Below, piece after piece: positions 3,687 to 6,619 of a DNA stretch of 10,734 bases. The notes under the pieces are model-generated. The model saw only the letters and a program-made list of their open reading frames with translations, ran no database searches and had not been told where the DNA came from. The translations under genes and the position numbers were made by a program. Origin of the DNA: a virus; the UHGV virus genome UHGV-1335316. The stretch is one strand, 5' to 3'. Within the stretch, counting starts at the first letter, position 1; the number at the start of each line of letters is the position of its first letter.

Positions 3687-3794
3687 ATGAAATCAAAAAT
3701 CAAATCGCTACTGGTCGCTGGTTATAACCACGGCTGGTTAAGTATTTCGTTTGTCGATTTCTGGTTTAAAAATCTCAATCTGAGGGAATCATGA
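3687..3794 (+). CDS. small hypothetical ORF (35 aa) translationally coupled to the primase-helicase gene
   Basis: ATG 3687, 4 nt after the initiator stop; translation MKSKIKSLLVAGYNHGWLSISFVDFWFKNLNLRES. Its stop tga 3792-3794 overlaps ATG 3791 (ATGA). Shorter than the ORF-track cutoff. Confidence 0.3.
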   Translation: MKSKIKSLLVAGYNHGWLSISFVDFWFKNLNLRES

Positions 3795-5671
3795 GGCCAA
3801 GTGAACTTAGCGACCTGCTTTGGGCGCAGGTTGACAGGGTGGCTCCGCACCTGTTGCCAAATGGCAAGAAAGAGGGGCATGAGTGGGTTGCCGGTAACGT
3901 CAACGGTGACAAGGGAAACAGCCTTAAGGTCAACCTTAGCGGCAAGAAAAAATGGGCTGATTTCGCTGAGGGAGACGGCGGTGACATGCTTGATTTGTGG
4001 ATGGCATGTCGTGGAATTAACCTGCATCAGGCTATGCAGGAAGCGAAAGCATTTCTCGGTATCAAGGATGACGATCACCATTTCGATGCCAGACGTGAGA
4101 AAAAATTCTCCAGACCTGATCGCAAGAAAATCGCCCGCTACGTTACCAGAACAGAATCCCATCTTGAGTACCTGCAATCGCGTGGCATATCGCCAGAAAT
4201 CGTAAAGCGCTACGAGGTTGTCAGCGGCAAGGTGTGGAATGGAGAGCGGGAACTGGATGCTCTGGTGATTCCGTACAAACGCGATGGTGAGTTGTTGCAG
4301 GTCAAGCGAATCAGCACTGAGCGCCCGGACGGGAAGAAAGTCATTATGGCAGAAGGTGATTGCGAACCTTGCCTGTTCGGATGGCAGGCTCTGGACGCTG
4401 GCGTGAGGGCGGTTGTACTTTGCGAAGGCGAAATTGATTGTATGAGCTATGCGCAATACGGCATCTCGGCGTTATCCGTACCGTTTGGTGGAGGGAAAGG
4501 CGCTAAGCAACAGTGGATTGAGTTTGAGTATCACAACCTCGACAGGTTTGAGGAAATATTCATCTCGATGGACGTTGATGATGTTGGTCGTGAAGCCGCA
4601 AGGGAAATCGCAAGCCGACTCGGTGAACATCGTTGCCGTCTTGTTACTCTGCCGTGCAAAGACATCAACGAATGCCTGATGAACGGTGTTACCGAGGATG
4701 AAATCTGGCAGTACATCGGCACGGCATCCTACTTCGATCCTGAAGAACTCTACAGCGCGCGAGAGTTTTACCAGGACACTATCAACGCTTTCTACGGCAA
4801 GCAGCAGTATCTGTTTAATCCACCGTGGGAATCTCTGGCAGATAAATTCCAGTTCCGTGAGGCAGAGTTGACGCTGGTCAATGGTGTGAACGGTCACGGA
4901 AAAACGGAGGTTGTCGGGCATATGGCACTTGAGGCAATGCGTCAGGGTGTGAAGACGTGCATCGCGTCACTTGAGCTGAAGCCTGGTATTCTCCTTAAGC
5001 GCCTTACCCGTCAGGCGACGTGCTGCAAGATGCCGCCAGTGCTGGAAATTGACTCTGCATTTAAATTTTATGACGAAAGACTTTGGGTGTTTGGCCTGAC
5101 CGGAACGGCGAAAGCCGACAGGCTGATCGAAATATTCGACTACGCTCGCCGCCGATACGGGATCCAGTTATTCATCATCGACAGCCTGATGAAATGTGGC
5201 ATAGGCGACGATGACTATAACGGGCAGAAGGCGTTTGTTGACTCGATTTGCGACTTCAAAAACAAAACAAACTCCCACGTCATTCTCGTTACTCACTCGC
5301 GAAAAGGAGACAGCGAAGAAAAACCAACCGGGAAAATGGACGTAAAAGGCTCTGGAGCGATAACAGACCTGACAGACAACCTTTTCATCATCTGGCGTAA
5401 CAAGGCTCGCGAGAGAGCGTTACAGAGAGTTCAGAGTGGTGAAAAGATGTCAGAGAAGGACGAACAGCTACTGGCATCTCCGGCATCTGTTTTGATGCTT
5501 GAAAAACAACGTAACGGCGAAGGTTGGGAAGGTGGTGTCCCGTTGTTCCTTGACGAGCAATCGCACCAGTTCCTGCAACTTGAATCAGGATCGCCATATA
5601 GCTACATCGCCAATATGCCGAAATCGGAATATGACGAGGCGTGGCGACAGGAAAACGTGACGGAGTATTAA
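3791..5671 (+). CDS. bifunctional DNA primase/helicase-like replication protein (TOPRIM domain plus P-loop ATPase)
   Basis: 626 aa. TOPRIM signature: acidic E in VVLCEGEIDCMSY and a DxD cluster in ISMDVDDVGREAA. Walker A GVNGHGKTE and Walker B-like LFIIDSLMK in the C-terminal half. SD gaggga before the ATG. It replaces lambda P. Confidence 0.85.
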   Translation: MRPSELSDLLWAQVDRVAPHLLPNGKKEGHEWVAGNVNGDKGNSLKVNLSGKKKWADFAEGDGGDMLDLWMACRGINLHQAMQEAKAFLGIKDDDHHFDARREKKFSRPDRKKIARYVTRTESHLEYLQSRGISPEIVKRYEVVSGKVWNGERELDALVIPYKRDGELLQVKRISTERPDGKKVIMAEGDCEPCLFGWQALDAGVRAVVLCEGEIDCMSYAQYGISALSVPFGGGKGAKQQWIEFEYHNLDRFEEIFISMDVDDVGREAAREIASRLGEHRCRLVTLPCKDINECLMNGVTEDEIWQYIGTASYFDPEELYSAREFYQDTINAFYGKQQYLFNPPWESLADKFQFREAELTLVNGVNGHGKTEVVGHMALEAMRQGVKTCIASLELKPGILLKRLTRQATCCKMPPVLEIDSAFKFYDERLWVFGLTGTAKADRLIEIFDYARRRYGIQLFIIDSLMKCGIGDDDYNGQKAFVDSICDFKNKTNSHVILVTHSRKGDSEEKPTGKMDVKGSGAITDLTDNLFIIWRNKARERALQRVQSGEKMSEKDEQLLASPASVLMLEKQRNGEGWEGGVPLFLDEQSHQFLQLESGSPYSYIANMPKSEYDEAWRQENVTEY

Positions 5672-5753
5672 ATGACAATCTACATCACTGAGCTAATAGC
5701 AGGGTTATCGTTACTAATGGTTCTTACTGTATATATTATTAAGTATATTCTTT

Positions 5754-6365
5754 ATGCGAATAAAAAAAACAATTGATCACGATGAGCTTCTGTCAACATT
5801 ATCATATGACTCAGAAACAGGAATATTTAAATGGCTAAAAACAAATTCAGTAGTAAGAGTAAAAGGTAGTATTGCTGGAGGTGTTAGTGGTGGTTATATA
5901 TGCATTAGCATAAATAATGTTTTGTATTATGCGCATAGGCTTGCTTGGTTCTATGTATACAAAAAATGGCCTCCTAAGTTTATTGATCATGTAAATGGGA
6001 ACAGACTTGACAATAGGATTTCAAATCTAAGACTGGCAACAGAGGAGCAGAATGCAAGAAACATTGTAGGTAATAGGTTAAACACATCCGGTGCGATTGG
6101 AGTGTCTTGGGATAAGACAACTGGCAGGTGGAAGTCTTATGTTGGTTATAAAAATAAGACAATATCGTTAGGGTATTTCGATAGCAAAGAAGATGCAGCA
6201 TTCATAGCAGCACTAGCAAGAAAGAAACTATATGGAACTTATGCGAGTAAAGCACTTAATTGCGAGCATGAGCTTTTATCTCAATTTAATAATGATGAGG
6301 ATAAACTTGCGGAATATCTTAAGGAAAAATCTAAAAGGACTCGAAAGCGTGTTAAAAAAAGATAA
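5754..6365 (+). CDS. HNH endonuclease with C-terminal AP2-type DNA-binding domain (homing-endonuclease-like)
   Basis: 203 aa. HNH_3-type motif IDHVNGNRLDNRISNLRLATEEQNARN; AP2-like segment GVSWDKTTGRWKSYVGYKNKTISLGYFDSKEDAAFIAALARKKLYG; basic tail. The gene and its flanks are markedly AT-rich compared with the neighbouring genes. Confidence 0.9.
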   Translation: MRIKKTIDHDELLSTLSYDSETGIFKWLKTNSVVRVKGSIAGGVSGGYICISINNVLYYAHRLAWFYVYKKWPPKFIDHVNGNRLDNRISNLRLATEEQNARNIVGNRLNTSGAIGVSWDKTTGRWKSYVGYKNKTISLGYFDSKEDAAFIAALARKKLYGTYASKALNCEHELLSQFNNDEDKLAEYLKEKSKRTRKRVKKR

Positions 6366-6366
6366 A

Positions 6367-6396
6367 GGCCTGCTGGTAATCGCAGGTCTTTTTATT
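6367..6396 (+). terminator. tR2-like intrinsic terminator
   Basis: Stem ggcctgc 6367-6373 / gcaggtc 6382-6388 (one G-U pair), followed by tttttat 6389-6395. Matches the lambda tR2 hairpin region as recalled. Confidence 0.65.
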
Positions 6397-6412
6397 TGGG
6401 GGAGAGTAAATC

Positions 6413-6619
6413 GTGGCTGAGTTAATTTTCTCTGCATTGAGGCTTCTCGGTGCTATGTGGATGGTGGCGACGTTCATTGTGATTGCTGGCTGTTTTGTCC
6501 GGTTGGTAGGCGAAGGTAAAGACCTGGTGGGTGTGCTTTTCGGTAGCATTCTCCTGTGGGTGATTATCGGTGTTGCGCCTGTTGCTGTAGCAAAAATGGC
6601 GTGGCGTTTTGTTAGTTGA
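6413..6619 (+). CDS. small hypothetical membrane protein (two predicted transmembrane helices)
   Basis: 68-codon ORF with GTG start 6413 preceded by gggggagag, and an in-frame stop just upstream at 6407-6409. Hydrophobic segments LIFSALRLLGAMWMVATFIVIAGCFV and LVGVLFGSILLWVIIGVAPVAVA. Its stop overlaps the SD of the next gene. Confidence 0.5.
   Translation: MAELIFSALRLLGAMWMVATFIVIAGCFVRLVGEGKDLVGVLFGSILLWVIIGVAPVAVAKMAWRFVS

Follow-up and report, generated by a model that had tools for sequence, protein, structure and literature searches.

Free-standing homing endonuclease genes (HEGs) of T-even phages (the seg and mob genes, e.g. mobE) move by "intronless homing": repair of a break, with the donor genome as the source, spreads them and co-converts their flanks. 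I-HmuI, from Bacillus phage SPO1, is a nickase encoded inside a group I intron. The association of an HNH nuclease with an AP2 domain is a recognised HEG architecture (PMC10448857), for which that paper cites Magnani et al. 2004 on HNH-AP2 homing endonucleases. Genes of this type ("IPA-HNH") are found in Vibrio phage ICP1 (Barth et al. 2023, PMC10448857). In this study, we analyzed a 10,734-nucleotide stretch of the virus genome UHGV-1335316 (hereafter the window), which corresponds to the immunity/early-right region of a lambda-like prophage. It contains an AT-rich island encoding an HNH-AP2 protein, inserted as a single cassette in the ninA/tR2 linker, a stretch of about 70 bp between the replication module and the nin region. 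Based on the sequence comparisons described below, we propose, with a probability of about 60%, that positions 5704-6368 are a free-standing HNH(I-HmuI-like)-AP2 HEG cassette, which would target this linker, spread by break repair and be self-immune.

The limits of the cassette were defined by comparison with empty sites. The original prediction, made on the window sequence alone, placed the island at 5704-6366, inserted precisely into a linker that is continuous in lambda. Its left edge was right, and its right edge fell 2 nt short of the real end at 6368. The flanks it quoted are found at 5690-5703 and from 6367 on, and they are indeed adjacent in lambda (...gagctaataacagg / cctgctggtaatcgcaggcc..., the slash marking the junction), and likewise in Sf101 and mEp043. 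In the empty allele of lambda, ...ATGACCATCTACATTACTGAGCTAATAACAGG / CCTGCTGGTAATCGCAGGCCTTTTTATTTGGGGGAGAG..., both window flanks are directly joined. The empty-site joint ...CTAATAACAGG / CCTGCTGGTAATCGCAGGCC... was found in lambda, Sf101, mEp043 and more than 100 IMG/VR lambdoid contigs, the intact linker across the junction reading ...CTAATAACAGG / CCTGCTGG... Overall, the flanks are contiguous in these three phages and in about 139 other lambdoid loci. Sf101 and mEp043, whose sequence is that of the window for more than 30 nt ahead of the junction region, are near-isogenic empty sites, since the same primase-helicase gene precedes the junction as in the window. The island is thus a discrete 665-bp block with a precise empty allele, rather than part of a larger non-lambdoid block, and its presence/absence polymorphism at one defined site is confirmed. 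Placement of the cassette is ambiguous by a 3-nt AGG found at both junctions, so that 5701-6365 is an equivalent position. The junction is the same in 28/28 IMG/VR contigs having an island edge and in all E. coli copies read. Length is equally constant: of 26 full-length copies from IMG/VR and phages, 25 measure exactly 665 bp, as do the 12 copies read from E. coli genomes.

Base composition drops sharply around 5700-6366, as had been noticed: GC is 0.340 in 5704-6368, against 0.48 and 0.489 in the adjacent 665-bp blocks and 0.466 in the rest of the window, and just 0.06% of all 665-bp segments reach a value as low. The GC3 of the island ORF (open reading frame) is 0.255, as compared with 0.48-0.57 in neighbouring genes. 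Both values indicate a foreign origin of the cassette. A repeat scan detected no terminal inverted repeats in the island, and no target duplication beyond the AGG. As the HNH-AP2 gene is moreover the sole gene present, with no transposase, we rejected an insertion sequence or transposon. No Rfam family, group I and II introns included, reached threshold anywhere in the window, and the ORF is separate from that of the truncated ninA (ninA') and in another frame; the gene is therefore free-standing, and an intron- or intein-encoded homing endonuclease was also rejected.

Coordinates of all features are given in Table 1.

Table 1. Features of the ninA/tR2 junction and of its surroundings, with positions in the window
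Feature	Coordinates	Strand	Evidence or remark
Toprim primase/DnaB-like helicase gene, 626 aa (outside the island)	3791..5671	+	Pfam Toprim_2, AAA_25, DnaB_C
Left linker (first 32 nt of the ninA ORF)	5672..5703	+	BLAST matches to phages with unrelated upstream genes begin at 5672
Chimeric ninA' ORF, 34 aa	5672..5776	+	Codons 1-10 from ninA, remainder from the island; annotated HK022_56 in AF069308
Inserted cassette, 665 bp, GC 0.34	5704..6368	+	Alignment to empty sites, repeat scan, composition
HNH-AP2 endonuclease gene, 203 aa + stop	5754..6365	+	Pfam HNH_3 + AP2; phrog_99 "HNH endonuclease", E 3e-72
HNH_3 nuclease domain, residues 58-102	5925..6059	+	Pfam PF13392, 57.9 bits vs cutoff 24.8
AP2 DNA-binding domain, residues 114-161	6093..6236	+	Pfam PF00847, E 1e-7
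tR2-type intrinsic terminator (10-bp stem, 8-nt loop, T-run)	6364..6397	+	Terminator scan; RNA fold -15.3 kcal/mol, z -3.0
Right linker, 38 nt (ninA 3' part + tR2 hairpin + T-run)	6369..6406	+	Phages with other downstream genes match by BLAST up to 6406
Hydrophobic ORF, 68 aa, function unknown (outside the island)	6413..6619	+	phrog_1165, E 4e-35

Translation confirmed the predicted ORF and its quoted motif IDHVNGNRLDNRISNLRLATEEQNARN, and both the HNH and AP2 assignments were borne out by Pfam profiles and by fold. Among 116 aligned homologues, H79 (codon 5988-5990, the catalytic histidine), N87 and N103 are invariant, and D78, N91 and N100 are at least 90% conserved; the same columns are invariant or near-invariant in a 13-sequence alignment. 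The D78-H79, N91, N100 motif is thus conserved, arguing against an inactive nuclease, and these residues align with the motif of I-HmuI (PDB 1u3e). The AlphaFold (AF2) model has a pLDDT of 89.8. Foldseek aligned it to I-HmuI over 106 columns with a root-mean-square deviation (rmsd) of 3.8 A (prob 1.0), and to the AP2 domains of TEM1 (48 columns, rmsd 1.1 A) and AtERF1 (51 columns, 1.4 A). The helical and basic C-terminal tail, residues about 168-203, is lineage-specific and missing from homologues. With I-HmuI, the protein shares an N-terminal beta-sheet DNA-binding region and an HNH beta-beta-alpha-metal core, in which the DH...N...N motif aligns, and both are extended monomeric multi-domain DNA binders from phages. 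Their sequence identity is about 20%, and I-HmuI ends in a helix-turn-helix whereas the island protein ends in AP2 followed by the basic tail. With the ICP1 proteins, it shares the N-terminal HNH and C-terminal AP2 layout, a free-standing gene and a location at genetic-exchange boundaries. The ICP1 genes are too divergent to match the HNH_3 Pfam profile (PMC10448857), whereas the island protein matches it strongly. Also unlike the ICP1 genes, the island lineage is confined to E. coli lambdoid phages and prophages, with at most 62% identity outside its own cluster, and is inserted at one defined site only, in the linker of a transcription terminator.

The homologue family comprises 1783 hits, mostly HNH_3+AP2 proteins of about 165 aa. 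Within it, the lineage of the window protein groups 521 members tightly, at about 99% identity; for the next relatives, identity drops to 62%, then to about 50%. The dN/dS ratio is about 0.26 over the 38 full copies (15 distinct ORFs), showing that the endonuclease ORF is maintained under purifying selection. Translation of 26 full-length copies gave an intact ORF in 25, the exception carrying a +1 frameshift in an A8 run. PADLOC returned a marginal "homing endonuclease" (HEase) match with no defence family, and NCBIfam no match; a defence system was rejected accordingly.

Two copies are 666 bp long, with one extra base: IMG/VR contig L133 and E. coli MS 196-1 (NZ_CP146681.1, 3160934-3161599). 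In L133 the extra base belongs to the A8 run over codons 4-6 (5763-5770 in the window) and leaves an ORF cut short at 7 aa; the gene of MS 196-1 is annotated as separate "HNH" and "AP2" proteins. These may be either decaying copies or homopolymer sequencing errors.

The position of the junction within ninA and within the tR2 stem, which the original prediction had not described, deserves attention. It falls inside a 26-codon ORF, annotated NinA in Sf101, at the 5' foot of the tR2 hairpin, so that the insertion sits both within ninA and within the 5' arm of the terminator stem. The hairpin at the junction is tR2, as the same hairpin by RNA folding follows ren in lambda, where the order is pR-cro-O-P-ren-tR2 (PMC3640518). 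The 3' end of the island (AAAGG) supplies the first stem bases, and the tR2 stem is thereby rebuilt, slightly longer at 10 bp. On the left side, the first 50 nt of the island give truncated NinA a new hydrophobic tail: ninA' is translated as MTIYITELIAGLSLLMVLTVYIIKYILYANKKNN before its stop, vs MTIYITELVTGLLVIAGLFIWGRGKS for NinA of Sf101. The ninA' ORF overlaps the start of the HNH gene by 23 nt. No sigma-70-like promoter was found on the + strand within the island, which would thus depend on read-through from pR and use tR2 as its terminator.

In all loci, including the window at 5672, the ATG of ninA either touches or overlaps the stop codon of the preceding replication gene, whichever that is (TAAATG, ATGA, TGATG), so that a translational-coupling signal falls at the module joint. 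In about 7 of the 120 IMG/VR contigs sampled (L040, L044, L064, L071, L075, L085 and L115), another terminator hairpin, GGCTATTTACACAGTAGCCCTTTTTTAT, replaces CCTGCTGGTAATCGCAGGCC after ...AACAGG, at position +33 from the ninA ATG, and keeps the ninA ORF open and hydrophobic throughout. Since it follows the same CAGG, CAGG is a mosaic breakpoint even without the island.

Besides the window, the island is present in HK022 (97.7% identical) and in the Shiga toxin (Stx) phages PA28, where it is annotated "homing endonuclease", 1717, WGPS4/6 and SH2026Stx1. The gene is already in public records ("HNH/homing endonuclease" in HK022 and Stx phages) yet uncharacterised, and is of an ordinary free-standing homing-endonuclease type. 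In 5426 complete E. coli genomes, we detected 138 island places, spread over 126 genomes, while the 70-nt linker query matched about 3000 places in 2052 genomes, i.e. an occupancy of about 5% of the linker sites. Sampling of 120 IMG/VR contigs on the ninA start gave about 110 empty and 3 filled sites. E. coli was the only carrier among GTDB species representatives.

In Stx2 phage 1717 (NC_011357), ISEc8 lies just inside the left edge of the island (59-2500 of locus L003, equivalent to window 5703-5710). Unlike the island itself, it is bordered by an 8-bp duplication, GGTTATCG. It cuts the HNH gene off from ninA and from the pR transcript, and the same arrangement was found in IMG/VR contig L149.

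The left linker, on whose sequence 180 loci were anchored, is conserved among lambdoid phages regardless of the upstream replication gene, and so is the right linker, past which downstream genes diverge directly. Among the 38 full copies, 23 different pairings of upstream and downstream genes were counted. The gene that ends directly ahead of ninA is one of at least six unrelated ones (ren, the HK022 P/DnaB type, the HK97 gp55-type helicase, the Toprim primase-helicase and two others), and about seven different genes lie downstream of filled sites. Identical island sequence types are found in different contexts: that of the window is 100% identical to the island of E. coli ECO20, which is followed by another gene. 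The only sequence common to all contexts consists of the 32-bp left and 38-bp right linkers, so that the target must be in the linker, if the enzyme acts near its own gene.

Flank markers situated 5-11 bp from the junction are shuffled relative to the island. At position -5, all 31 filled IMG/VR and phage copies have a G (ATAGCAGG up to the junction), and about 98% of the empty sites an A. A G is nevertheless also found in 28 empty IMG/VR sites, with the same three haplotypes as in filled sites, and an A in 6/36 filled sites (E. coli genomes, two island lineages), the remaining 30/36 having G. One of the A-bearing filled sites has an empty counterpart of matching haplotype, GTTAATAA. Island and marker are thus found in all four possible combinations, and site-specific gain together with precise loss explains this more easily than crossovers confined to 4 bp would; the cassette could be deleted exactly through the AGG microhomology. 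Given the six A-filled sites, and G-empty sites as common as filled ones in IMG/VR, G as an obligate immunity or hitch-hiking allele was rejected. In the toprim context, the 300 bp upstream are identical in filled and empty loci, making any co-conversion gradient unreadable.

Several copies may coexist in one genome. Z1323CEC chicken strains carry one, two or three islands. Z1323CEC0006 has three, two of which were read (L185 and L187, NZ_CP148466.1 at 1.997 Mb and 4.274 Mb); they are 100% identical, in different prophages, with ninB downstream in one and a DUF7301 gene in the other. Around them, identity is 100% for 1.2 kb upstream, over the shared primase-helicase gene, 96-98% beyond, and is lost right after the right linker. 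This possibly reflects break-initiated conversion limited by heterology, and ordinary inter-prophage conversion would look identical.

These observations can be assembled into a homing cycle. The gene, lying upstream of tR2, would be transcribed from pR with the rest of the early-right message, and its translation is probably poor, since it has no Shine-Dalgarno sequence and its start is overlapped by ninA'. During co-infection or induction of a polylysogen, the enzyme would nick or cut cassette-less lambdoid DNA within the intact linker, a location proposed because no other sequence is shared by every context. Recombination functions of the phage (Red, RecET or Erf) or of the host would then mend the break on the template of the cassette-bearing genome, and the cassette would be copied. 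The left and right linkers, each a candidate homology arm and half-target, would support this repair, unless neighbouring genes are shared and provide longer homology. Insertion would split the target, hence self-immunity, and the 3' AGG of the cassette would rebuild the terminator stem and leave early-operon regulation undisturbed. Like the T-even HEGs, the island is a single-gene cassette present or absent among close relatives. T-even Seg proteins are GIY-YIG and Mob proteins HNH without AP2, in contrast to the HNH-AP2 type found here. T-even elements lie between conserved genes and have their targets in them, whereas the neighbours of the island are not conserved, so that only the 70-bp linker is left as a probable target. 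Its host being temperate, the element is also silent in prophages, unlike T-even HEGs. Of the homing footprint put forward in the original prediction, the HNH-AP2 gene inserted precisely at a defined empty site is observed, and homing itself is what we infer.

A number of observations weigh against homing. Empty sites are as shuffled in upstream/downstream combinations as filled ones, which makes the linker a mosaic joint of general use, and diversity of context does not by itself prove homing; being recombination joints of lambdoid phages in general, the linkers could spread the cassette passively. The G/A pattern at -5 could also stem from recurrent mutation or patchy mismatch repair. A very efficient drive should be commoner than the occupancy of the linker sites indicates. 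No isogenic pair of strains with a fresh cassette gain was found among Z1323CEC sister strains, in which those with fewer copies lack the whole prophage, with no empty site. The excess of multi-copy genomes may be due to chance. The AP2 Pfam score, 32.6 bits vs a cutoff of 33.3, is 0.7 bit under the gathering threshold, although the modelled fold, by its match to TEM1 and AtERF1, settles the assignment. Finally, the searchable literature, outside which lies the HK97/HK022 genome paper (Juhala et al. 2000), yielded no publication characterising the HNH-AP2 protein and no assay of its cleavage.

The alternative that draws most on these points is that the island entered the linker once, by any mechanism, and has since been reshuffled as passive cargo by ordinary homologous or short-homology recombination in the linkers, like any other module of the nin region, the nuclease being kept for another benefit (cutting rival phages or host DNA, stimulating recombination) or being merely undecayed. 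Recombination of the linker without the nuclease, as seen at empty sites, speaks for it, and lambda Red recombineering works with arms of such lengths (32 and 38 bp). A single acquisition fits the low diversity of the island (at most about 3%) and the gap from 99% to 62% before the next relative; the otherwise rare G in 30/36 filled sites is as expected from hitch-hiking with one founder, and a frequency of only about 5% agrees with passive spread. Nevertheless we consider this explanation rather unlikely: the protein class is known almost only from homing elements, the insertion is exact, at the only sequence common to all contexts, and the dN/dS value shows a maintained ORF. Identical copies in two or three prophages of one genome also argue against it, as do the A-filled sites of two lineages and the G-empty sites in three haplotypes, which need exchanges within 4-5 bp of the junction.

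It seems quite improbable that the gene encodes instead a domesticated DNA-binding protein, in which AP2, with or without the nuclease, would serve as a regulator, an anti-defence or an exclusion factor, making the gene moron-like rather than selfish. AP2 domains do act as sequence-specific repressors in phage CasPR anti-CRISPRs (bioRxiv 10.64898/2026.02.23.707548), which gives this explanation a precedent; the lineage-specific basic tail, and expression timed for host takeover by the early-operon position, would also suit it. CasPRs, however, have no HNH, whereas the island protein has kept every HNH catalytic residue and resembles I-HmuI in its N-terminal half; the sole PADLOC match is the marginal one to homing endonucleases, and the pattern, one gene precisely present or absent in a conserved intergenic linker, is that of HEGs. 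HNH proteins are also widespread as terminase partners (Kala et al. 2014, as cited in PMC12315714), and HK022 is an HK97-like cos phage, which raises the question of a packaging protein needed for cos cleavage, like HK97 gp74, also an HNH-superfamily nuclease of an HK97/HK022-like phage. This is extremely improbable, and we rejected it, since the gene is neither adjacent to terminase or portal genes nor present in all members. In the window, HK022, PA28 and 1717, it lies in the early-right operon between replication and nin genes, away from packaging genes; its HNH_3+AP2 type differs from the short gp74 type in HNH subfamily and size, and its distribution differs too, extending across unrelated packaging modules (Stx Sepvirinae, HK022) while missing from about 95% of otherwise similar phages or linker sites.

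If the enzyme does cut the ninA/tR2 linker, it would provide a natural and experimentally convenient homing system in lambda-type phages, with a target of about 70 bp, lambda as the empty-site recipient and HK022 as the natural donor. This would offer a concrete test of nucleases shaping the module boundaries behind lambdoid mosaicism. A further step, which we regard as doubtful, is that endonuclease breaks at the linker actively drive the exchange of whole modules, so that part of the mosaicism at this boundary would be nuclease-driven; the arms, being of recombineering length, would permit it, and the rare linker alleles beside the junction (G at -5 and its haplotypes) would have been left behind by earlier gain, loss or resistance within a homing cycle. 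In practice, the island is a harmless and well-delimited accessory gene, to be treated by annotators as a one-gene insertion splitting ninA.

Related genes were found at other joints of the nin region. A second free-standing HNH-AP2 gene, of 175 aa and 33% identical to the window protein (E 2e-19), lies between ninB and a dam methylase gene in prophages of E. coli Z1323CEC0001 and Z1323CEC0006 which also carry the island (L186 4086-4613, L187 4119-4646). Nin regions of lambdoid phages may thus host several HNH-AP2 genes at different joints. A Logan contig (SRR10380363, L153, 5920-6520) carries a chimeric HNH-AP2 gene of 171 aa, P0004, with the same left junction as the island. Its residues 1-66 are almost those of the window protein; from the conserved HRLAWF motif on, it continues as a different, GC-richer HNH-AP2 gene abutting rusA, and the whole ninB-ninF region is missing. 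The chimera has the look of a deletion caused when two paralogous endonuclease genes recombined. The short HNH gene upstream of rusA in mEp043 (gp61) was rejected as the source of the C-terminal half of P0004, having no similarity to it. On the doubtful view of nuclease-driven module exchange, the ninB/dam gene and the nin-deleted chimera would suggest a small guild of enzymes acting at different joints.

The rest of the window has the gene order cI, cro, cII, an O-type initiator gene, the Toprim primase-helicase gene, the nin region, Q and lysis genes, with near-identity to lambda from position 1212 on, over cI, cro and cII. The primase-helicase gene is the final gene of the replication module, and it also precedes the empty site in Sf101 and mEp043. 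The strongly hydrophobic 68-aa ORF opens a variant of the nin region, with a GTG start 7 nt beyond the right linker; as it follows the island in HK022 (HK022_58) and also follows empty sites, it is an independent nin-region module. The place taken in lambda by rexA/rexB, left of cI, is occupied here by a homologue of the abortive-infection gene BstA, on the minus strand (235-1132) and AT-rich (GC about 0.34). It consists of two ORFs, 467-1132 matching positions 4-181 of the PADLOC BstA profile (E 8e-65) and 235-438 matching 219-270 (E 2e-18), and is probably a pseudogene split by a frameshift or nonsense mutation, or else reflects a sequencing error.

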